Of a DNA stretch of 64,000 nucleotides, positions 11,246 to 49,862 are shown piece by piece (position 1 is the stretch's first letter; each line of letters opens with the position of its first letter). A program made the position numbers and the translations under genes. Location: IMG/VR virus record IMGVR_UViG_3300045596_000094, positions 160,001-224,000 of that record; one strand, given 5' to 3'. The notes beneath the pieces were generated by a model. That model was not told the DNA's origin. It did not search any database and saw nothing but the letters and a program-made list of their open reading frames with translations. This DNA is from a virus. Lineage: Duplodnaviria; Caudoviricetes.

Positions 11246-12865
11246 TTATGCTGTCTTTTTACGTTTCTTACGTTTATCTCGACCACCACGTAACCAGTTC
11301 GCCATTGTGAATGTTTGTGGCGCTTGTTGCGTAAATGCTCCAGATACCGTTCTTGGATTGTCCATACTCAGTACAGAACGAGATGGTGCAAGACGAATGA
11401 AACGTTTATCCATTTCTTTATCTAGAATTAACCAGATGTGTAATGCATCGCCGTCAAAGTCTGCATTTGGCCCATTTGTGATATTCACGGACATTGAGAT
11501 TGTACGAATACGAGGATCAGTTTTGACCTTGGTAATTCGACAACGCTGCATTGACGACTTCTCTAGAGAAGGTGGTCGTTGGAAAGTACATGGGATACCA
11601 CCACCAGCTTCCATGATTAGTTCTTGAAAGATCTGATCTAGTAGTGGGTGATAGTTGTTGGTGTGATCATCAATGAACTTGTTTGCTACTTTAGGGGAGT
11701 ACCCTTTTCGCTTTAACTTATTCATGATGTGGGTTCGGAACATCGCTACTGCTGGTGCCCACGGTACATGTAACTCATCATGCTGATGGGTTTCATTGAT
11801 ACTGGTAATTACGGCACGCATAGAGAACGCTAAGCGTCCACCAAATACATGGCGTCGATATTCCCCTTGCTTAGAACCTGCAGTGCCTGAAATAAAGGCT
11901 TTACCAAATTCAGCCATTCGTTTCGTACAATGTACTGCTCGTCGATTACAGACAGAGAACTTAATCTTCTTATCTGAGTTTGCAATGGAAATCCCAATCT
12001 GTTTTACCGCATACATGGCATCGGAGGCTGTAGCCATTGAAACGTCAACCCATGTTCCAGAGTTATTTGTTTCTAATACAACCCCCAAAGAAGAAGGCAT
12101 AGCTAGATATTGAGTAAACACTCGAGTTTTATCCGCAATGTATTTTTCAATAAATATGGCTAATTTACGATCTTCTAGGTTCTTGTCACCTAATGGCGTA
12201 TTCATTAGAAGCCAAGTCCCTTCTACCTTACCTTCGCGTAGATCTTGGAAAGCGGCTGCAACATCTGCATCGGTCATACCTTCGATATTACGTGGTTTCT
12301 TACGTAATAGCATTAAAGACACAAACAGACGCATAATGGTTGCAAAATTATCATGGAAGAAATTGAGATTTCTTTCTTGCTTCGTAAGATTGAAATTCTC
12401 GAGTATCTTAGCATAATCTTTCTGCTTCTTCGGATCTGGATCTGGGTAGGAAGGATTGACAAACCACTCCAACATATTCCAACCAGTCTTTGTGAGGTAG
12501 CGTGAAGTCACTGCCCACCAACCAGGAGCAATGAACTTATTAACACCATCAGGGGTACGTACCCACAGGTTAGATTCCAAGGGTTTATCTAAAATATCTA
12601 GACATTCGGTATTACAATTCGGACAAATGAGTCCTTTATTGAATGGTCCAGACATTTCCCCACATGAACATTTTGGAACTGCTTTCATTACATCGCCTTG
12701 GTAGCGTGTATAAAGCAGCGAGTTCAGCTTATCCTGTCCTTCCTTTGTTGTAGTATCGATATCGTTTGCTATTAATACTGGATAAGTTGCCGATGCTACG
12801 ATTCTCTCGTAATCCGGAAAATCTGGCATCTCTGTTGTGGCAATAGGTGGTGGGAAACTTAACAT
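11246..12865 (-). CDS. Non-virion RNA polymerase beta' N-terminal subunit (phiKZ gp55-like)
   Basis: Zinc finger CSCG...CPNC, R..VFGGR..FS.RAVI, QRPPSL and catalytic NADFDGD; directly follows chimallin. Confidence 0.92.
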   Translation of the reverse strand: MLSFPPPIATTEMPDFPDYERIVASATYPVLIANDIDTTTKEGQDKLNSLLYTRYQGDVMKAVPKCSCGEMSGPFNKGLICPNCNTECLDILDKPLESNLWVRTPDGVNKFIAPGWWAVTSRYLTKTGWNMLEWFVNPSYPDPDPKKQKDYAKILENFNLTKQERNLNFFHDNFATIMRLFVSLMLLRKKPRNIEGMTDADVAAAFQDLREGKVEGTWLLMNTPLGDKNLEDRKLAIFIEKYIADKTRVFTQYLAMPSSLGVVLETNNSGTWVDVSMATASDAMYAVKQIGISIANSDKKIKFSVCNRRAVHCTKRMAEFGKAFISGTAGSKQGEYRRHVFGGRLAFSMRAVITSINETHQHDELHVPWAPAVAMFRTHIMNKLKRKGYSPKVANKFIDDHTNNYHPLLDQIFQELIMEAGGGIPCTFQRPPSLEKSSMQRCRITKVKTDPRIRTISMSVNITNGPNADFDGDALHIWLILDKEMDKRFIRLAPSRSVLSMDNPRTVSGAFTQQAPQTFTMANWLRGGRDKRKKRKKTA

Positions 12866-12955: not shown

Positions 12956-15082
12956 TTAACCGTAGAAGTTAAATGGTCGTGCTTCACCGATGTTGTAGAT
13001 TGAACCTTGAAGCTGTGAAGAAGCCTGTTGATACAAACCAGAACCTACGTTTGGATCTACCATTACAGAAGACCAATCTTGGATCGTTTGAGTGTAGACT
13101 TGTTGTTGAGAGTTTAACAAAGTATTGTTAGAGTTCAACGTGAAGCCTGTCTTCTCGATTGCTTCAACCAATGCTGTAACGAAAGCAGCAGAAAGGTCAA
13201 ATTTAGTTGTATAACCTTTTACATGTACTTCTGAGCAAAGCGCACGGAAGATACGTAGGCGGTTATCTAAACGCACCAATGGTTCTTCGATCGTAGTTAC
13301 AGTCGTAGCCAAGTAGTCCTGCACTAATTGAATATTACCAGCGGCAATGTTCAAAATAGCAAGTAAGTCTAGTTCACGTAAATCGCGGTATTCACCTTCT
13401 GGGTTTTTGTAGAAACCAGTATGGTTACGGTCACGAGTTTCACGAACAACAGGAATACCAGCTGCTGCTTCAATAGAAACACCACATTTCGCCGCGTAGA
13501 TAGAACGGAAACGACCACCCGTTAAGTTATCTGCCGCATTTACGATTGCTGCGTTTGCATTGCTACCATCAGTACCTGCAGCTTTAGCAAATACATCCAA
13601 TAACCAGCCATTAGAAGAAGCTTGTTCAATTTCTAATGTATATACTGGGCTTGGAGAAATTGCTGTTGCGATTAACTGTTGAAGTTGTTGATCAGATTCA
13701 ATAGTTAAAAGACCGGGCTGATTATCTTGAGCCAAGTGAGGAAGCTGCCAGCCCAAAGCACCAAGGTTACGTAAGTTACCACCAGTAGAACGGTTGTAGC
13801 TATCGCTCCACTGAATACCATAGCCACGGTTACGGTTCAGTGTAGTTAAGTTCGCGATACCCAATACTGCAAATTCTAAAGCAGAACCAGTCATACGTGA
13901 AACCAACTGAGTGATTGTAATACGTGGAACGTAATGGTATTGCGGTTGACCTTGTTGGAACATTGGGAAGTTGTTCGCTGCACCAAATGTTGATTGTGGA
14001 GCTGTGTATAGCAAATCTACATACGCAGCAGAATCAGTTAATTCGCGCTGAGTATTAGATTGAATCACTTGTTGCTTAGCGCTACGATACTGCATGATCA
14101 ACTTCGCAGTAATGTCAGAACGCACTGGTAAACCTGTTGCAGTGTGTTTGTCTTCATTTACAGCAAATTTACTTACGATAGAAACGTTTGGATCAGTTTT
14201 AATTTTATCCAAGTTAAATGCGTAAGCTTGGGCTTGAGGATCGCAACGACGAAGAGTAGCATCGATTGCGTCAGCAGCTTCGTTCAAGATTTTAGTTACT
14301 GTAATTTCGTCACGTACATTTGTTTGGCTGTAGATAACCTGCAGACCAGCATCAACAATGTTTGTTTCGTTTTTGTAGTAACGAGAAACTTCTTTGTGGA
14401 CCAAGTGTTTCAAATCATCTTTAAACGCATCAACCGGAGTAAGAATGATTTCAATTACATTGCCATGAACTTGCTGTGTTAAAGTTTCCAATGGTGGTCG
14501 TGAAGTTTCTAAGATCCAGCTTTGAACTGCAATTGTATTTTTGTTGTTTACTGATTGGAAAGTAGAAACAGCAAGAACAGTAAAGCTACCAGTTACCGAT
14601 TTCGGTACAACATGGAAGTTTAATACGCCTTGAGAGTTTGCACCACTAATCGTAGATTTGTCCTGAATTTCTTTTACCATTTTCAAAAGGGCAGCTGCAT
14701 CAGTATCGCCTTGGTCAGCTACTTGGAAACGTGGGTTATAATGGTCGAACATCATTTGAGCTGTGTTTGCGAAAGAGTTAGACATTGAAGGAGTCCCTTG
14801 ATATTGAGTTTGCGTTTGAGTTTGTTGAGCGTTAGTGTTATTGGTAGTAGTACGCTCCTGACTTGCTACCTTAGTTGCCTGAGCCATTGCTTGACCCATT
14901 GCCGTTTGCGGAACTGGTTCCACAACTGGAGAGACAGTTGCTTTTTCTGGAACTGGTTCAACCTTCGGTTCTGGTTGTGGCTCAGCGGTTCGTTCCTGAT
15001 GCTCGGCTTGTGCCTGAGCTTGAGCTAATGCAGCAGCATCTGCTTCACGTTGTTTCTCATTAGCTTTCTTTTGAACTGCCAT
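12956..15082 (-). CDS. chmA: Chimallin, phage nuclear shell protein (phiKZ gp54-like)
   Basis: About 700 aa; GLPVRSD, Y.PRI.IT, LRNLGALG and GFY....G..RDLRELD.LA motifs; directly upstream of the nvRNAP beta' gene; strongly biased codon use; GGAG RBS before MAVQKK at 15082. Confidence 0.88.
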   Translation of the reverse strand: MAVQKKANEKQREADAAALAQAQAQAEHQERTAEPQPEPKVEPVPEKATVSPVVEPVPQTAMGQAMAQATKVASQERTTTNNTNAQQTQTQTQYQGTPSMSNSFANTAQMMFDHYNPRFQVADQGDTDAAALLKMVKEIQDKSTISGANSQGVLNFHVVPKSVTGSFTVLAVSTFQSVNNKNTIAVQSWILETSRPPLETLTQQVHGNVIEIILTPVDAFKDDLKHLVHKEVSRYYKNETNIVDAGLQVIYSQTNVRDEITVTKILNEAADAIDATLRRCDPQAQAYAFNLDKIKTDPNVSIVSKFAVNEDKHTATGLPVRSDITAKLIMQYRSAKQQVIQSNTQRELTDSAAYVDLLYTAPQSTFGAANNFPMFQQGQPQYHYVPRITITQLVSRMTGSALEFAVLGIANLTTLNRNRGYGIQWSDSYNRSTGGNLRNLGALGWQLPHLAQDNQPGLLTIESDQQLQQLIATAISPSPVYTLEIEQASSNGWLLDVFAKAAGTDGSNANAAIVNAADNLTGGRFRSIYAAKCGVSIEAAAGIPVVRETRDRNHTGFYKNPEGEYRDLRELDLLAILNIAAGNIQLVQDYLATTVTTIEEPLVRLDNRLRIFRALCSEVHVKGYTTKFDLSAAFVTALVEAIEKTGFTLNSNNTLLNSQQQVYTQTIQDWSSVMVDPNVGSGLYQQASSQLQGSIYNIGEARPFNFYG

Positions 15083-15153
15083 TTGAGATCTCCAAATAAT
15101 AAGTTTATACAACAATATTGATCAATATTGAATAGTAACTCTACCATTCAAGT

Positions 15154-16431: not shown

Positions 16432-18651
16432 TTAATCGTCGTCCCCGTCACCCATATAGAGAACAGTATATTCCTCCTCTACCAATGGAATGCCGTAAAT
16501 CATTCCATCTTCAGGAAGAGAATACTCGTCAGATAGAATCCGTGTTTTCTTATCATTCTTCATGTAGAATCCTAAAGATTCAAGAACAATGTAGAATGTT
16601 TTCAATACTTCAGATACAATCCCACGAATATCTACCACCCCACGAATCTCTTTCGGGATACCATGGGTAGCTAAAGCTTCACGCGGTAAACGGAAAAGTT
16701 TAACATCGTTTTTACGGTTGTCCTCCACCCAACGTTCTAGATTACGACGAATCGTAATATCGTCAATTGAATCCAACCAAGCTTTTACGGCAGTCTTATT
16801 CGGAAGACTTACTGATACCTTGATTGCCCGATAAGGGGGTTCTGGCGCTTGACCGTATTTCGCACCAAACACCTCGTTCCAGAAAGTGTAACTCTGATAT
16901 GCTACTGCGTCTTCGCCTTGAGAGTACGATTCTGAACCTTTAATCTGAACACCATTCATAAACTCGAAACCACCATTATAGATATCATCAATAATACGTT
17001 TCTCTAGTTCAAGAATCGGACGAAGTGCTTGATCTACTGTAATTGGTTTATTGTTCATGATAGAATCAATAATCCAACGCATATAGTTGTGTGCTTGCTC
17101 ATTAATAAAAGGTGGTACATTCGATGAACGAAGGTTTACACCCTTCACTTCCAGAATACGTTTATTCGTCGCATACACGTTACCTTCACCCGCAGTGATA
17201 AGTGTGAAATAATGTTTGGCTAACGAGGTTAATGTATAGACTGGGAAGATATATTCATTCTTCATTTCTAACTGTGTGAGTTGAGAAGGATCAACCCCCA
17301 AGTTAGCCGAATACATCATTAGGGTATGTGTTGTTAAACCCGCAATTAAGAAAGTTACAACATATTCAATTGACATCGCCTCGTGACTGAAAGGGATATC
17401 GCCACCATACTTATCACACCAATACTGCGTTGTAAAGATCGTTGAATCTGTATCTGAAGTCGGTACAGACTTACGTCTAGAGTTCGGGAATTGTGCAATC
17501 GAGTGTGGCAGATAATCGGCTTTCAAGAAAGCAGATATAAACTTCTGGTATCTAGAGCAAACCTCTTGCATGTTCTGCGCAGTCAATGCTACTGCGTGAT
17601 ACGCTTCTGGTTTCTTCTCCTGAGCATCGGTAAGTAACATCCCTGAGATGATAGGTGAGCAGAGTAAAGAAGCAATGGCTGTGAAGTTATCATCTAACCC
17701 CTTAATAATACTTTCAGGATCGGGATGCGTACCTTCTTTCATCTCGGCTAATGACTTTAAGAACACTTTGACAAAATCACCATTATGTTTGTCAATGTGA
17801 TATAGGTCACCTGAATAAAGCCATGCTGCTCGCTCAGCATCGGTAAGTGATTTCAGTGTTTCGTAGATCTCACGCTCATGTTTTTCACTTGTCCAATAAT
17901 ACTGACTCGAATGGCGTACTGCCTCCATGCAATCATCAGCAGTTGGTCGATGAATACCCATGGTGTTGAAACATTCTTCTATCGTAGCAGTGTCGCTATA
18001 TTGCGCCGCTGTAAGAATGTGGAACGTTACAATTGCTGGAGCGTAATAGTGTCGTAACCCACCTAGAATCTTTTCATTATTCGAGTTCGCATAACTTGTA
18101 GCACAACGACAAGTGGATGTTAACGAAGAGTGTGAGGACTTATTATACCCAGGGGTACTTGAAGAAGCATGTGTTCCAGATACAGAGTTATTCTTTACCT
18201 TTCGGGATTCCTGTAAGGTTTTAAAATAAGCTGCTGCCTCATCTTCAGCACGCATACGACAAACAAACATTTGTTTCTTGTCTGCTTTACGTAAATTCAT
18301 GTTTAGCTGAATGTACTCAGCTAAAATAGATTTTTTGATCTTGGGAGGAACGTAACAGGTTAGACTTGGTGCAATGATATATCCATCGCTATTCAACGCA
18401 TCAAGGTATTCAAATAACCCACGCTCACAAATCTCACGGTCACCGTTTTCTTTTCGTCTAAGGAACATTACCTTAGGGTCTTTTAAAGCGAAAGCACCGT
18501 TCAAACCAACAACTTTATTGACATAATCCAAAGCATAGTCAAAAGTGACGTTTCTTCTTTTCATTAAGTAGAAAGCAAGATCTTTTTTGGCAATATCTAA
18601 GACATCATATTCCCGTATATATGTTTCGGGAGGGCGTGTAAAATAACCCAT
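16432..18651 (-). CDS. Family-B DNA polymerase, polymerase subunit (phiKZ gp50-like)
   Basis: Motif B K..NNSVSG, motif C SDTDSTIF, AKHY and EVKGV; no exonuclease motifs seen. Confidence 0.9.
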   Translation of the reverse strand: MGYFTRPPETYIREYDVLDIAKKDLAFYLMKRRNVTFDYALDYVNKVVGLNGAFALKDPKVMFLRRKENGDREICERGLFEYLDALNSDGYIIAPSLTCYVPPKIKKSILAEYIQLNMNLRKADKKQMFVCRMRAEDEAAAYFKTLQESRKVKNNSVSGTHASSSTPGYNKSSHSSLTSTCRCATSYANSNNEKILGGLRHYYAPAIVTFHILTAAQYSDTATIEECFNTMGIHRPTADDCMEAVRHSSQYYWTSEKHEREIYETLKSLTDAERAAWLYSGDLYHIDKHNGDFVKVFLKSLAEMKEGTHPDPESIIKGLDDNFTAIASLLCSPIISGMLLTDAQEKKPEAYHAVALTAQNMQEVCSRYQKFISAFLKADYLPHSIAQFPNSRRKSVPTSDTDSTIFTTQYWCDKYGGDIPFSHEAMSIEYVVTFLIAGLTTHTLMMYSANLGVDPSQLTQLEMKNEYIFPVYTLTSLAKHYFTLITAGEGNVYATNKRILEVKGVNLRSSNVPPFINEQAHNYMRWIIDSIMNNKPITVDQALRPILELEKRIIDDIYNGGFEFMNGVQIKGSESYSQGEDAVAYQSYTFWNEVFGAKYGQAPEPPYRAIKVSVSLPNKTAVKAWLDSIDDITIRRNLERWVEDNRKNDVKLFRLPREALATHGIPKEIRGVVDIRGIVSEVLKTFYIVLESLGFYMKNDKKTRILSDEYSLPEDGMIYGIPLVEEEYTVLYMGDGDDD

Positions 18652-43615: not shown

Positions 43616-46588
43616 TTAATCCCATAATGTAAATTGTTCAATGTCTGGTCGAGGGGCTGTAACCGGTATAGATGCTCCTCGTTTGCGTGTATTCAAACGA
43701 TACACTCCTAAACGCATGAAAGGTACAGCATCAACAGTAATTGCGTTAGTGGCGTTTGTACGCACGATAACAGCAATCATAGTGTAATCTGGACGTTCCG
43801 CAGAACCCGCAGTTAATGCCGTTAGGTAAGGTTCCCCTAAACGGATACCGCAATATAAATAAAATTTAGAAGTGAGTTGCCCAGATTGATCTGCCGGTAG
43901 CTCTACCGTTTGCGGTGGTATAAATGTATTTATACCTGCCAAGAATATCGGGATATTCTCAGTAACTGCAACAGACCCAGCGGAAGCTGCCAGAGGTGCC
44001 GCTAGTAACATCGGCTCGCTAGCAGATCTCATTGCAATCATTGGACTAATTCCTTCAATATCGACGGGTTCCGACATTTGGAGAATTTTCAACCAACTAT
44101 CCTTAGTTGTAAAACTGACACCATTTACTTTATCAAGATAATAAGTTACAATGCCGAAGTTTGAACTATAGGGGGTATTTAAGATTTCGGCTTCAGAACC
44201 AAAACCAAAACGATAAATACCGTCGCTGTATTTATCCCACCCGTAACTGTACTGCGCGAGGCCAGAGTAAAAGATTGCGATCTTACCAGAAGAAGCTTCT
44301 GCAAAAACACTCACATTCGCAGTATCCGGTTGTTCAAGATCAGGTGTTACCTCGCCATTGTAAGTTTCAATAGAGGTAACTACAGAACCTTTAATTACTG
44401 CACCTAGGGTATAATCGTTATCGCCTTTGATACATTCGGTGATTAAATGAATCTTAATACACCCCACACCAATCGCACCAACTAACGACATACGAACAAA
44501 AGCCTTCCACTGCTTACCGTCAAAGAAAGGTACAACATGGAAGTTACCTTTATTTAGATAATCGTAGTTCTGATTTAACCACTCATTGATGCTACGAAAT
44601 TCCACATAGGTGTCTAATTCGTTGATAATAAGATTTTGTTTACCTGTTAAAGATCCGGTGAAATCCAACTCAACACGTTGTTGTTTGAAACGCTTACCAA
44701 TCTCTGAACGGAGTTCTTCCAATGTGAACGACATTAAACTAAAGCGAGTCGTACACGTGGTATTATCGTATCCTGAAAGGCTATTGAAAATCTCACCCGA
44801 ACTACAACTGTAGACTGTGGAATAACTACTTAAGTTTACACCATCGATATAACGCTGCTCAGTGAATCGTTCAAGATCTAGACTATAACCTTGAACCACA
44901 TCCCCTTTAGCGTTGATGTATTTGTACGTCGGTGTATCGTCAGTAGCAATGTTCAATCCACCTAATTTATACCCACCTACCTCGGTACCTGAGATAAATA
45001 CCATAGTCTGTCCATCACGTAGCTCACCGCATAACGGGATACCTGTTTGATTCGGAGCAATGGTGGCTTTATCATCACTCACGGTACGGATAGTGCATTC
45101 GGCTAGACTGTTTCCATTACTGTCACGCATTGTGACAATTGAGTTGCCCGCTGAAGTTGTCGGTGTAGTAATAGTGAAATTACATTCGCAACGTGTTTCA
45201 ATTGCGCCAGTAGCACCATTCCAATTGCTTTCCTTTGTAACTGGAACAACCATCGAGTAGCTACCATTATTGTAAACTAATTGAGGTTTACCGTCCGAAA
45301 CTGACTTCACCGTTTTATTGACTAAATCAACAACATACTCAAACGCATAGTTAACAATGAACTGTTGTCTAGAACCTGTAGATCTCCGAACATAGAAGTA
45401 AGCTGTACGCGATAGTTTTAAACCGATAGAACCATCATCGTACTGAAATACATCTAAGAACCGATCGAGTGATTGGCCAGATAAATCTAGCGCCTTGAAT
45501 TCTAAATTCTCAGCTTTTACAATACTAAGGTCTAATTCAGAACCAGCTACCCCGTATAATCCACCTGACAATACCACCGCAGAAATGTTATCTAACGTTG
45601 TGCCTTGGAATTGCGATTTAAAACCGGTTATTGGAAGTAAGCTTAGTTTCCCATCAACACCATTCAATCCTTTTAACTTATAAATTAATAAAGATAAACG
45701 ACGATCTGGTTTATCACCGAAGCTCGTGTCAAGGGGAGAGATATCAAAACGGGTGATAAAAACTTCCCCATTCGATTCAAATGCCGTATATTTGAATTTA
45801 GCTTCTATTACCTCAGCATCTAACCCCTTAGCAACATGTTTTGCATATAGGTTGTTCTCTTCCAAAAAGTAAGCGTGATGGTACGCGCCATCCAAACTTC
45901 CGTCAGTCACGACTACGGCTAATTCATCTTTACTGCGGTCACCACTATAGTGTTTTAATTTGATAACTAATAATGTTTTAGATGAAGAGAAGATCTGACT
46001 TACCGTGTAGTCTGATGGATTATATCCTTCAGGTAAGTTAGGGATATATTTATCTTCGGTCGCAGTATACGTAACAACATCATTACCTTCAATGATACCC
46101 GAACCGTAGTTATACGTCGTGTCAAACCCATTAGTGACTGGAACTAAAGTATTGAACCCACCATCTACAGTTGGCGATGCAAATGCAGCGCGCGCTAAAC
46201 CATCAATAGGATAACTGAAGCCTGTAGCACCAGATCCAATTGGTAGAGTTGCTCGAGATAAATTCCCAACCTGTGATACGTTAGTTAGTGCGGCGATAGC
46301 GTAGTTTTCCGACATCCACGGCATGTTTGCTCTTAAAGGATCGCTAGTGCCACCAGTACCTGTTAGACCACCGGCTGGATCCACTGTTCCTAGTTCGGAA
46401 GTAATTCCTGATGTTTTCAAATCTGCCATGATAGTTGTATAAACCATCTGGATAGTTGTGTTTACTGTTTTATATCCAGCTAACCCCTGTGCCCATGGTT
46501 GAGCAATCAGAATAAGGTCAGCATCTTTTAACGCCCCAGCAGCAGGTTGCTGGGAAAACGGTTGTGTGTTCTTATCTAAACCAGCCAT
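43616..46588 (-). CDS. Tail fibre / receptor-binding protein
   Basis: 990 aa; C-terminal PFMRLGVYRL...RGASIPVT typical of phiKZ-like tail-fibre paralogs. Confidence 0.75.
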   Translation of the reverse strand: MAGLDKNTQPFSQQPAAGALKDADLILIAQPWAQGLAGYKTVNTTIQMVYTTIMADLKTSGITSELGTVDPAGGLTGTGGTSDPLRANMPWMSENYAIAALTNVSQVGNLSRATLPIGSGATGFSYPIDGLARAAFASPTVDGGFNTLVPVTNGFDTTYNYGSGIIEGNDVVTYTATEDKYIPNLPEGYNPSDYTVSQIFSSSKTLLVIKLKHYSGDRSKDELAVVVTDGSLDGAYHHAYFLEENNLYAKHVAKGLDAEVIEAKFKYTAFESNGEVFITRFDISPLDTSFGDKPDRRLSLLIYKLKGLNGVDGKLSLLPITGFKSQFQGTTLDNISAVVLSGGLYGVAGSELDLSIVKAENLEFKALDLSGQSLDRFLDVFQYDDGSIGLKLSRTAYFYVRRSTGSRQQFIVNYAFEYVVDLVNKTVKSVSDGKPQLVYNNGSYSMVVPVTKESNWNGATGAIETRCECNFTITTPTTSAGNSIVTMRDSNGNSLAECTIRTVSDDKATIAPNQTGIPLCGELRDGQTMVFISGTEVGGYKLGGLNIATDDTPTYKYINAKGDVVQGYSLDLERFTEQRYIDGVNLSSYSTVYSCSSGEIFNSLSGYDNTTCTTRFSLMSFTLEELRSEIGKRFKQQRVELDFTGSLTGKQNLIINELDTYVEFRSINEWLNQNYDYLNKGNFHVVPFFDGKQWKAFVRMSLVGAIGVGCIKIHLITECIKGDNDYTLGAVIKGSVVTSIETYNGEVTPDLEQPDTANVSVFAEASSGKIAIFYSGLAQYSYGWDKYSDGIYRFGFGSEAEILNTPYSSNFGIVTYYLDKVNGVSFTTKDSWLKILQMSEPVDIEGISPMIAMRSASEPMLLAAPLAASAGSVAVTENIPIFLAGINTFIPPQTVELPADQSGQLTSKFYLYCGIRLGEPYLTALTAGSAERPDYTMIAVIVRTNATNAITVDAVPFMRLGVYRLNTRKRGASIPVTAPRPDIEQFTLWD

Positions 46589-47439: not shown

Positions 47440-47973
47440 TTATGCTTCCACTAATTCCTTAACCGTTTTAGTTTTAGCAGATGCGAGGGTGTAGCTCTTC
47501 AGATACTTTTCAGTAATCTCCAGATGACGACTACCCAAACTATTACCCCAGTCGTATTTCGGTTGACGGGGTGTTGCTACAAAAGAATCCTGATAAGAAG
47601 CAACATCAAAAGGAACTTCTATTGTAATAGCCCCACCAGGCAACCCTTCAATAACAACCAAAGCCGAAGCTGCAGTAGGCGTCCCGAATTGTTCTGGCTC
47701 TTCACCAACCTTACCATTCTTACGCCACTGATTCCAATACGGGAGTTCAGGACGAACGTAATTGAAACGTAGTGATGCTTGAACGAAAGGTGCGTTTGGT
47801 GCGTAATCTACGTCTTCACGTAGATAAACTGCGAAGTGTTTCTTCGCAGTAATGTTGGCTTGCATTTCTTCTTTTAAAGACTGGATTAAAGGGAGAACTG
47901 CTTCGCCATAAATCTTTTCAATGATCTTAGTAGCGTTATACGTTACTAGGTTCACATGGGTTTGTGTTGCCAT
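47440..47973 (-). CDS. Hypothetical protein
   Basis: 177 aa. Confidence 0.75.
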   Translation of the reverse strand: MATQTHVNLVTYNATKIIEKIYGEAVLPLIQSLKEEMQANITAKKHFAVYLREDVDYAPNAPFVQASLRFNYVRPELPYWNQWRKNGKVGEEPEQFGTPTAASALVVIEGLPGGAITIEVPFDVASYQDSFVATPRQPKYDWGNSLGSRHLEITEKYLKSYTLASAKTKTVKELVEA

Positions 47974-48748
47974 GATCCGTACCTTCAGTTTCTGTAGACT
48001 TGTCTATAGGATTTGCCTTAGCATTTTGTTTTACGCTAGGCAACATAGACTCACCCTTTAACCAATGTAATTTCAAACGTTCTGGTGAAATTTCTTGCCA
48101 ACGCCAAATCGCATTAATAGCGACATTACCCGCTTTCACACGCACACAAGGAACAGTGGTTGCAACATTAATTACTTTTGTTGGATCTTTCGGATTGATC
48201 ACTTGGTGATTTAAACACTCGTACCAACCATAGATAGTTTCACGATTAGTTTGCGCTTTAATAGCGATGCGTTCACCTTTGAAGATACGTTCAACAGGAA
48301 GAGCATCATAACGCCAATTCGGATCTTTATCGGTTTCTGGTTCGCGTTCAGCCAACGCTTCACGAGGGATAGCAGAGAAGTTATTGCGGATACCGATAAT
48401 GCCATTTTGCAAAATAAATTCCACAACATTATCTAGATTACGTTCTTGCAAAACATGGTATTCGAAATTCTCAACAAACTCATGTGTGTGCGCTACCGTT
48501 TTGATGTGCGCGTTTCGTAACGGAGCCAGTAAATTGACGATAGCGGTTTTACGCCCTTCTTCATCTAGCTCCTCACTTTTCATGATGTTGATCATGCCAT
48601 CAGTTACAACGTTCCAAGCAGCACCCAAACACTGCATTACAAAATCCGCGTTAGAAACCGGCGGGAAATAATCTTTTTGTTCTTCTGATACGTTTGGAAT
48701 TTCTTTAAAATCAGCGTCTACGATTTCTTGAGCTTTAGGGTCTAACAT
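47936..48748 (-). CDS. Hypothetical protein
   Basis: AAGGA RBS before MLDPKAQ; the longer start at 48835 would run through a terminator. Confidence 0.75.
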   Translation of the reverse strand: MLDPKAQEIVDADFKEIPNVSEEQKDYFPPVSNADFVMQCLGAAWNVVTDGMINIMKSEELDEEGRKTAIVNLLAPLRNAHIKTVAHTHEFVENFEYHVLQERNLDNVVEFILQNGIIGIRNNFSAIPREALAEREPETDKDPNWRYDALPVERIFKGERIAIKAQTNRETIYGWYECLNHQVINPKDPTKVINVATTVPCVRVKAGNVAINAIWRWQEISPERLKLHWLKGESMLPSVKQNAKANPIDKSTETEGTDHGNTNPCEPSNV

Positions 48749-48801
48749 GAGAGAGGTTTCCTTATTAATCGAGTTTAAACCATAGTAATACATGGCAATA
48801 C

Positions 48802-48866
48802 AAAAAAAAAATAGATAGAACAATATTGACCACATCGCCGAAGCGATGGGTCAAATTGGTTTGTTC
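48802..48866 (-). terminator. Intrinsic terminator
   Basis: GACC-CATCGC-UUCG-GCGATG-U-GGTC stem extended by GAACAA/TTGTTC, then a T10 tract. Confidence 0.8.
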
Positions 48867-49390
48867 ACTACTTCGTTCAGTTACCCCTAACACCTTACAT
48901 ATGGCCACTATGTCTAGAACATAGTTACTGTGTATCTTAGGCATTCATACTTTCTCAGTGTAGGGTTGATCTGTTGTCTTCTAAAAGACTATATAGAAAG
49001 AGATAACTCTTTTGTTCCCGCATTTAAGGGATTGGCTATTTATTAAGTTTTTGAAGTAGTAAGTCGTTATCTATTTTAGATATCAGTTTGACCTATACTC
49101 GTCCATACGAAATCCTCTTTTCCGCGGTACTGAGTATTTCAAAAGGTAAGCAGAAATCTTTAAATAAATGCTCCACTATTACAGGATAATAATGGAGTTT
49201 CTCCAAAGGGAAAGGTGTGTAGAACAACTCAAACATTTCACAGATACTGGGGAAGCTATAACATTCTTCCCTAAACTCATCTGCGATTGATCTAACCCCC
49301 ACACCTTCAAACACCTCGGAGAGCGCATCTAACAATCTAGATGTGATACGACCACTACCGAGTACGACTACTTGGATAGTGGTTTACCTG
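48802..49390 (-). ncRNA. Candidate large (about 580 nt) structured non-coding RNA
   Basis: More than 12 stems tile the interval, with nested multi-stem domains and one crossing 8-bp pairing; wobble pairs are G-U on the minus strand; ends in a cUUCGg hairpin plus U10. Confidence 0.6.
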
Positions 49391-49394
49391 CAAA

Positions 49395-49862
49395 TTATTT
49401 CAATAATTCAGCAGCAGCTTCAGCAATACCAGATTTGATACGGTTAATTGCAGCACCATTTTTAGTTGTTTGTTTAACAGTAGTATAACCAACAACTTCT
49501 TTGATTGTCGCTTCTTGACCTTTTTCTTTAGGTGGGATAGAAACTTGACCCACACGTTTAACAGTAACGTCAACAACAGAACTACCGATTTTAGTAGAAG
49601 CATTTACGTGAGAGAGTTCAGCATTTGTTTTTAATACGTCAAGACCTTTTGTACCGCCCGCATGTACAAAAGCTTCTTTATAAAGAACGTCGTGTTTATG
49701 TACGCCATCTGCTTGTTCAACACCAGTCTCACCAAATGTTTCTGGCAGTGTACCATTGTAGGTATCTTTGTCAGAAGCAAAAGTAAGTTCAGAGCCAGTT
49801 ACTTGGAACTGTTCTTGAAGAGATGCAGAAAGATCAAGGTAAGAAGTTTTAGCGTTAGACAT
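49395..49862 (-). CDS. Conserved, probably highly expressed early protein of phiKZ-like phages
   Basis: 155 aa, GGAG RBS, strong codon bias (GCT/GTT/ACT/AAA), early promoter at 49982-49995. Confidence 0.85.
   Translation of the reverse strand: MSNAKTSYLDLSASLQEQFQVTGSELTFASDKDTYNGTLPETFGETGVEQADGVHKHDVLYKEAFVHAGGTKGLDVLKTNAELSHVNASTKIGSSVVDVTVKRVGQVSIPPKEKGQEATIKEVVGYTTVKQTTKNGAAINRIKSGIAEAAAELLK

Follow-up and report, generated by a model that had tools for sequence, protein, structure and literature searches.

A conserved, strand-specific structured RNA unit with a putative hidden small gene in a clade of nucleus-forming jumbo phages

The subject of this analysis is a densely structured unit (positions 48802-49390, read on the minus strand) in a stretch of 64,000 nucleotides (nt), hereafter the window, which covers positions 160001-224000 of the virus record IMGVR_UViG_3300045596_000094 (269,038 bp, with direct terminal repeats). 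The unit lies inside the 646 nt that separate two minus-strand genes, encoding proteins of 155 and 270 amino acids (aa). It is a real, conserved and strand-specific structured RNA outside the known families; it is confined to a small, uncultivated clade of chimalliviruses, and its 5' half of about 285 nt is a putative hidden small gene, recognized by a stop-free frame together with coding-like substitutions and codon usage. A first-pass annotation, made from the sequence alone, had placed the unit in a nucleus-forming jumbo phage, and this label is justified by the genes for chimallin (window 12956-15115; PF25677, E 9e-37), a divergent family-B DNA polymerase (16432-18651; PF20286, E 4e-223) and a beta'-like RNA polymerase protein with Rpb1 domain 2 (11246-12865). 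The three genes cluster near each other upstream in the window. The best DNA match for the stretch, possibly the sample it came from, is a bioreactor sludge metagenome. The genes that frame the unit, and the open reading frame (ORF) hidden in it, are as follows.

49395..49862, minus strand: gene of the 155-aa protein, directly upstream of the RNA unit, taken from the ORF list
49093..49377, minus strand: hidden ORF of 94 codons, from AUC (49377-49375) to UAG (49095-49093); its frame opens at 49383
47936..48748, minus strand: gene of the 270-aa protein, downstream of the unit, with its own ribosome-binding site (RBS) AAGGAAA and its true start at 48748

Relatives were sought in a collection of 5.8 billion proteins, which gave six close ones for the 155-aa protein and six more for the 270-aa protein. 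The nine lineages compared below are the window and contigs L002-L009 and L018-L021, all from metagenomes, and in all nine the same two genes enclose a gap of 580-700 nt. Remote relatives in the 155-aa family (L013, L016 and L017) retain the synteny with the prohead protease, and there the 100-130 nt after the gene consist of a terminator hairpin, about 15 nt and a run of T9-T11, the unit being absent. Because these relatives carry only the terminator at the locus, the unit reads as an insertion particular to the clade, about 520 nt long and placed between the 155-aa stop codon and the terminator. The covariance model R1 found one copy per clade locus; neither R1 nor blastn of the genome against itself gave a second copy in the 269-kb genome. 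Among 50,697 records of isolate phages no match was obtained by blastn with the interval or by tblastn with the 155-aa and 270-aa proteins, nor did IMG/VR yield relatives when both proteins and both alignments were used as queries.

When the interval 48795-49394 was folded as minus-strand RNA, its minimum free energy (MFE) was -181.3 kcal/mol against -139.8 +/- 6.3 kcal/mol for dinucleotide shuffles (z -6.56; none of 100 shuffles as good), which lies beyond the genome background as estimated from 29 random 290-nt stretches (mean z -0.77, standard deviation 1.43, minimum -3.8). The halves fold independently, with z of -4.6 for the ORF half and -4.95 for the tail half, and the first-pass description of the interval as heavily structured is borne out for each of them. 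Across lineages the z of the ORF half ranged from -4.6 to -5.4 in four, was about -3 in two, and was weak in two. The structured elements of the 5' half are listed here.

49345..49388 (core 49352-49382), minus strand: hairpin A, 12-21 bp, bipartite, a few nt past the upstream stop; holds the candidate start
49200..49323, minus strand: domain C, an irregular long hairpin within the ORF, hypervariable in sequence, from the MFE fold
49171..49197, minus strand: hairpin C2, 12 bp with a 3-nt loop, within the ORF, from the window fold only
49091..49147, minus strand: S domain, a long hairpin with an apical stem of 6-7 bp and a purine-rich loop AAGAGGA (49113-49119) resembling a Shine-Dalgarno (SD) sequence

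The RNA of the ORF itself retains covarying hairpins. Hairpin A is found in all nine lineages despite their differing sequences, with a stability of -16 to -24 kcal/mol; 83% of its cells are paired against 22-74% when the partners are slid, and its covariation is 0.73 against 0.42 in shuffles (none of 500). In every lineage the candidate start forms part of its 5' arm or of its internal loop, as read by eye from the folds. The arms of the S apical stem vary in almost every lineage around a constant loop, A/U-AAG-R-GG, and 92% of the S-domain cells are paired (28-44% slid), with two-sided changes in 20 cells against 7.5 +/- 2.0 in shuffles (none of 500). The ORF crosses the S loop in a fixed frame in all lineages and stops at a variable site in the 3' arm. 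An equivalent of domain C, a hairpin of about 120-130 nt, is present in most lineages with sequences that cannot be aligned, and is least clear in L005 and L006.

The 3' half (about 49092..48826) is an array of hairpins, L, H1, H2, H3 and M, followed by an A-rich tail and a terminator-type hairpin, with a non-coding portion of about 230-290 nt.

49068..49082, minus strand: linker hairpin L, with the motif GGUCAAACUGA immediately upstream at 49083-49093
49016..49031, minus strand: H1, a 4-5-bp stem with the 8-nt loop UUAAAUGY
48997..49012, minus strand: H2, a 5-6-bp stem with a 4-nt loop; 96% paired
48976..48989, minus strand: H3, a 5-6-bp stem with a 4-6-nt loop; 94% paired after model-based alignment
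48885..48965, minus strand: M domain, multi-helix (Ma, Mb, Mc and Md), with a conserved internal loop UGAGAAAG / GUAA and a variable tip
48866..48884, minus strand: conserved A-rich single-stranded tail, GUAACUGAACGAAG..., able to pair with the U-rich tract past the terminator

In the plain MAFFT alignment, for which the structure of the 3' core was written from the window fold, 87% of the cells are paired against 40-57% when slid, and 13 of the 35 pairs are changed on both sides, against 5.9 +/- 1.8 in shuffles (none of 500). After alignment to R1, which leans towards the structure, 91% are paired and 13 of 32 pairs are changed on both sides; over both alignments the slid-partner control gave 37-57%. 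Two pairs of H2 are changed on both sides (A-U to G-C, and A-U to U-A in L006), three pairs of Mb and five of Md likewise, and the H3 stem occurs as GUCUU/AAGAC, GUUCU/AGAAC and GUACUU/AAGUAC. At the base of the H1 stem, U-A is replaced by G-C in L007/L008 (folds read by eye). The H1 loop is near-invariant, with a single change from U to C in L018, and a candidate pairing between the H1 5' arm and UAAGG of the M domain has both sides nearly invariant. The motif GGUCAAACUGA is conserved in four lineages (the window, L002, L020 and L005), where it is read in different frames or stands behind a stop, and is therefore conserved at the RNA level. Nucleotide identity to the window is 65-82% for the 3' core, 66-80% for the 155-aa gene, 62-69% for the 270-aa gene and 59-63% for the ORF region, so that the conservation of the 3' core equals or exceeds that of both flanking genes.

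The covariation at homologous loci that the first-pass annotation had proposed to look for is present, covariation exceeding that of shuffles in hairpin A, the S domain and the 3' core. Most of the stems that it listed are in the MFE fold and show compensatory changes in relatives: 49351-49359/49375-49383 is hairpin A, conserved as described; the nested domain 49200-49322 is domain C; and the S apical hairpin (49109-49117/49132-49140), H3 (48976-48980/48985-48989) and the M domain (48885-48893/48958-48965 enclosing 48907-48913/48919-48925) all carry compensatory variants. The stem 49171-49181/49187-49197 (hairpin C2) is seen in the window fold and may be conserved. Two of the listed pairings did not hold. 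In place of 49001-49007/49066-49072, all lineages have the local covarying hairpin H2, and the 8-bp pairing 48867-48874/49053-49060, proposed as a pseudoknot, is strong in the window only (z -2.7; +1.8 to -1.2 in the others), whether taken as a closing helix or as a pseudoknot, and the pseudoknot is therefore unsupported.

Mismatches of A with C on the plus strand had been read as G-U pairs of a minus-strand RNA, and this reading is confirmed by 36 G-U pairs on the minus strand among the modules folded, one of which, in the S domain, does not vary in any of the nine lineages. Among the one-sided changes, several (C-G to U-G and A-U to G-U, both seen in the Ma helix) retain pairing on the minus strand only. 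These pairs and changes, together with the sense fold of the 5' half beating the antisense fold in seven of eight lineages, and with the failure of blastn to find a second copy or a repeat in the genome, make it very improbable that the unit is a DNA-level element (a replication origin, a packaging site or an anchor to the nucleus) or what is left of a mobile insertion, functionless as RNA. On the side of such an element are the good folding of both strands in the window (z -7.69 for the plus strand of 48795-49394), the status of the unit as an insertion relative to more distant relatives, and a mosaic exchange of sub-modules, L020 having ends like those of L002 and an M domain like that of L007.

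The middle of the ORF is hypervariable even where the ends of two lineages are nearly identical; between L002 (4486-4767) and L020 (1900-2181) a middle of about 170 nt cannot be aligned. The M domain of L020 is a variant of that in L007/L008. Since L020 combines L002-like ends with an M domain of the L007/L008 type, the mosaic pattern suggests recombination between lineages within the unit.

As to known families, Rfam 15 at gathering thresholds gave no match in the 64-kb window, with ROOL, GOLLD, OLE, tmRNA, RNase P, 6S, group I/II introns, ribozymes and riboswitches included, and at E <= 10 the region 48600-49600 gave a single match to STnc350 at chance level (15.6 bits against a threshold of 60). 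ARAGORN found no transfer RNA (tRNA) or transfer-messenger RNA (tmRNA) gene in the window. The first-pass statements that the signatures of tRNA, tmRNA and RNase P are lacking and that a new family is possible both agree with these results; the assignment to the size class of ROOL, OLE and GOLLD does not stand, as the non-coding part measures about 230-290 nt only. A pattern made of H1 and H2 had no match in viral contigs, JGI metagenome contigs or GTDB genome contigs. A pattern for the M domain hit four metagenome loci, the fourth being L018 again; none of the three new ones matches R1, and they are therefore chance matches.

The first-pass annotation had considered the interval to be a purely non-coding RNA of about 580 nt, and had allowed that an 80-aa ORF might turn out to be its real product, to be judged by ribosome profiling. 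That ORF is the tail of a longer frame, which opens after the stop at 49383 and closes at 49093, and it is by sequence comparison that a coding signature is found in it. In all nine diverged lineages the frame is free of stops over 90-105 codons, the ORF itself being put at 85-103 codons, as compared with 4-13 stops in the other sense frames (about seven each) and 2-13 antisense, and the region meanwhile differs between lineages by about 40% of its nucleotides in addition to insertions and deletions. The three ORF differences between L002 and L003 are all synonymous third positions; the ratio of non-synonymous to synonymous substitution rates is 0.36 for L007/L008; six of seven differences in the conserved ORF ends of L002/L020 are at third positions; the motif PFPL[ED]KL is kept in the window and L007 with codons that differ mostly at third positions (alignment read by eye); and the database variant P0154 has a one-codon in-frame deletion. 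When codon usage was scored after training on 87 long genes from the same genome, the ORF frame obtained 0.10, compared with 0.30 +/- 0.095 for genes and -0.59 / -0.91 out of frame, and the remaining two frames of the region gave scores typical of out-of-frame sequence.

The description of the whole unit as a single non-coding RNA of about 580 nt (a scaffold, a decoy or part of a ribonucleoprotein, RNP), with the open frame untranslated, is consequently quite improbable in our estimation, for it would have to accommodate the frame kept open in nine lineages, the bias towards third-position and synonymous changes, the in-frame insertions and deletions, the coding-like codon usage and the fixed relation of the S loop to the ORF frame (alignments read by eye). 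What speaks for it is that structure is kept over the whole length, ORF included, and that the ORF has no ATG and no SD sequence and specifies a poorly conserved product with no confident fold. Neither ATG nor SD is present for the ORF in any of the nine lineages. In eight lineages the codon at the aligned start position is AUC, AUU or UUG, and L006 has GUG there; the position stands two codons ahead of the conserved motif V[VI][IV]LG, at a distance after the upstream stop of 11-17 nt in the eight and 10 nt in L006. The earliest canonical start in the window (TTG, 49335) falls 3' of this conserved N-terminal motif. Because the ORF has no ATG and no RBS and is placed within conserved hairpins, gene callers start it variously or miss it. 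Homologues of the product form four clusters among the 5.8 billion proteins, all within the clade.

Three other coding arrangements were examined and rejected. A fusion with the 155-aa gene by frameshift or read-through is excluded, since the frame relation varies (+2, +1, or in frame with two stops). An ORF reinitiating after the SD-like S loop has a start and a frame inconsistent across lineages, and another short ORF, of 59 aa in the window's M domain, is broken, in our translation of the aligned sequences, by a 1-nt spacer difference in L018/L019 and by a stop in L007.

A strain 95-99% identical to the window is present in another public run and differs from it at seven sites of the unit (48799-49372). 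One of these is a synonymous change of CAA to CAG at 49372, in codon 2 of the hidden ORF, and a two-base change at 49240/49242 replaces Cys by Ser.

Downstream of the A-rich tail the following features were identified.

48826..48854, minus strand: terminator-type hairpin, 12 bp with one bulge and a UUCG loop, followed by 14 U-rich nt
48802..48811, minus strand: run of U10, 14 nt past the hairpin; a T9-T11 run is kept in relatives
48780..48791, minus strand: 12-mer motif GTATTACTATGG, between the U run and the 270-aa gene, outside the RNA unit

The cUUCGg terminator of the first-pass annotation is thus correct as to the hairpin, and its U10 run lies 14 nt beyond instead of directly after; a simple terminator scan did not call the hairpin 48826-48854. 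A strong hairpin occupies the terminator position in every lineage, with differing sequences. The motif GTATTACTATGG is identical in eight lineages, including the most distant, L006, and is absent in L018; the 269-kb genome has one further partial copy of 10 nt, within another hairpin-dense gap. It is possibly a promoter of the phage RNA polymerase, judged by its likeness to the early (TATATTAC) and late (TATG) promoter motifs of phiKZ. No RNA run is listed for the stretch. Two wastewater runs labelled RNA-Seq each contain a single contig, of 213 nt (48886-49097) and 160 nt (49079-49238), which are possibly DNA and are not taken as evidence of expression.

The position of the unit directly 5' of a terminator and upstream of a block of co-directional genes would fit an attenuator or a processive-antitermination element governing read-through into the 270-aa gene and beyond, and in L018 no promoter-like motif separates the terminator from the next gene. 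We hold this to be improbable: eight of the nine lineages have the invariant promoter-like motif past the terminator; the terminator arms vary and have no covarying upstream partner, the sole long-range pairing being specific to the window; and the distant relatives show the same terminator layout with no such RNA.

The reading that we favor, if tentatively and with a little less than even confidence, is that the unit is the structured 3' part of the transcript of the 155-aa gene and combines a translationally coupled hidden ORF with a conserved non-coding recognition platform, acting in cis. The 155-aa gene and the unit probably share one transcript, which would start with that gene and extend through the unit to the terminator. 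Hairpin A would mask the start; as a stable hairpin holding a weak non-AUG start with no RBS, it would block initiation by free ribosomes. A ribosome that ends the 155-aa protein 10-17 nt upstream would melt the 5' arm of hairpin A and reinitiate, by termination-reinitiation coupling, to give small amounts of a fast-evolving protein. The features expected of such coupling can be recognized in the sequence, namely a start within about 20 nt of the stop, masked by structure and with no SD of its own, and the coupling is predicted from them. A conserved protein partner would recognize the 3' array, in a sequence-specific manner, at the end of the mRNA, and the array would protect the transcript and/or tune the use of the hidden ORF; the invariance of its loops points to such a partner and not to mere stability.

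A number of points weigh against this interpretation. Co-transcription, the 5' and 3' ends of the RNA, translation of the ORF, its coupling and the function of the 3' domain are all inferred from sequence. The covariation rests on nine lineages, several of them close kin, and the shuffle control ignores relatedness. The codon score of the ORF is below that of 98.5% of true gene segments, the window's product shares only 19-28% identity with those of the other lineages and has no Pfam match, and its AlphaFold2 model, from an alignment of eight sequences, has a mean predicted local distance difference test score (pLDDT) of 46; on account of these low values the protein may be less important than the act of translating it. 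The efficiency of the terminator is uncertain, because the U10 run does not directly follow the hairpin. Moreover, the sequence-specific conservation of the 3' core exceeds the need of a generic stabilizer.

This last property would fit a dual-function RNA, in which the ORF is translated and, in addition, the 3' domain (L-H1-H2-H3-M and the terminator, about 270 nt) is released or separately made and acts in trans, for example by mimicry of SD and anti-SD sequences, as UAAGGUG and AAGRGGG are complementary to CCCUUA in H1. We regard it as doubtful, though deserving of serious attention. The 3' core is as conserved as the neighboring genes, with invariant loops and significant covariation, and motifs resembling SD and anti-SD are visible in the sequence; yet no conserved promoter motif was recognized within the unit (a scan for sigma-70-type promoters performs at chance level and is uninformative for this phage), and the contacts of the H1 loop lack covariation, the Y position of the loop and its candidate partner not covarying when read by eye. 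A precedent is given by phiKZ-like phages: phiKZ and 201phi2-1 produce short RNAs derived from untranslated regions (UTRs) and bounded by intrinsic terminators, one of them conserved across genera (PMC10914365, PMC11512511). Those RNAs are shorter than 250 nt (71 and 141 nt in phiKZ), lie in 5' UTRs and contain no ORF (PMC10914365, PMC11512511); a review mentions the phiKZ non-coding RNAs in passing only (PMC13282480).

The unit resembles these RNAs in its chimallivirus origin, its terminator boundary and its intergenic or UTR location, and differs from the phiKZ gp182 locus, where the upstream gap is 55 nt and the gene context is another. R1 found no match in 72 kb of phiKZ around gp153-gp239, and the flanking 155-aa and 270-aa proteins have no tblastn match in isolate phages; neither homology nor synteny with the loci described for phiKZ and 201phi2-1 was found. 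In phiKZ an unannotated gap of 502 nt lies between PHIKZ178 and PHIKZ179 (186158-186659; L040 28159-28660), and it is negative with R1.

It is also conceivable, if unlikely, that the unit represents a new family of large bipartite phage RNAs with linked translation and folding, in which the ORF product, or the passage of ribosomes through A, C and S, would remodel or bind the invariant 3' domain, forming a self-contained, clade-specific RNP or switch. The 155-aa protein itself is found in distant relatives with no RNA unit, and an obligate RNP with it is therefore unlikely. It was considered as an RNA-binding partner; its likeness to levivirus coat protein is non-significant (E about 0.1, template modeling score below 0.2), and no claim is made.

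The 155-aa protein belongs to a conserved chimallivirus family (138 clusters in a profile search). Its AlphaFold2 model has a pLDDT of 92.9 and an alpha/beta fold with no match in PDB, and its BFVD matches are uncharacterized proteins of jumbo phages including KTN4, Noxifer, PhiEaH1 and RSF1. In L013 (2466-3453), L017 (2345-3477) and L010 (138-1248) the gene of about 150 aa occurs as two adjacent paralogues downstream of the prohead protease, of 147 + 150, 158 + 158 and 154 + 149 aa, respectively. The 270-aa protein has no match in Pfam, in PHROG or by tblastn against phages. Elsewhere in the window, a protein of 990 aa (43616-46588) matches with its C-terminal 100 aa or so, at 35% identity (E 4e-5), hypothetical proteins of Salmonella and Klebsiella jumbo phages of about 340-360 kb, its remainder being unmatched. 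Outside the window, the genome has at 121046-121685 (L022, about 1547-2186) a second hairpin-dense gap of 640 nt, free of ORFs and with C5 tracts; its sequence is unrelated to the RNA unit and has no R1 match.

Translational coupling through a hairpin that masks a start is established for the coat, lysis and replicase genes of the single-stranded RNA coliphage MS2 and for many bacterial operons. The unit is similar in having its start in a stable hairpin a few nt past the upstream stop, weak and with no SD of its own, and in the high degree of structure of the coding RNA. It is different from MS2-type coupling with respect to the non-AUG start in every lineage and the long conserved non-coding domain after the ORF, and it belongs to a double-stranded DNA jumbo phage whose mRNAs are made inside the phage nucleus; here the coupling is predicted. 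With ROOL, GOLLD, OLE, HEARO and raiA it shares a length of several hundred nt, several domains, a phage location known for some of them, and the lack of an assigned function at discovery. It is unlike them in having no cmscan match even at E <= 10, in consisting for one half of an ORF, in lacking tRNA neighbors, and in its layout of successive hairpins, for which neither a long-range nor a multimeric fold is demonstrated. The dual-function RNAs SgrS/SgrT, RNAIII/hld and SR1/SR1P are base-pairing regulators that encode peptides with canonical starts. Conserved structure and a small ORF on one RNA are common to them and the unit, and the ORF of the unit is much longer (about 94 codons), with no canonical start and no known target pairing.

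In nucleus-forming jumbo phages transcription takes place apart from translation, and little is known of control at the RNA level; because of this separation mRNAs can fold before they meet a ribosome. The small and uncultivated clade limits the immediate impact of the present finding. Within it, the unit represents a structured non-coding domain outside Rfam that has comparative support and is conserved like the neighboring genes, and at the same time an example of a gene that standard callers misplace or miss. Should the 3' domain act in trans, it would be a new phage RNA, and if the coupling is true, gene control in the style of RNA phages would operate in a giant DNA phage.

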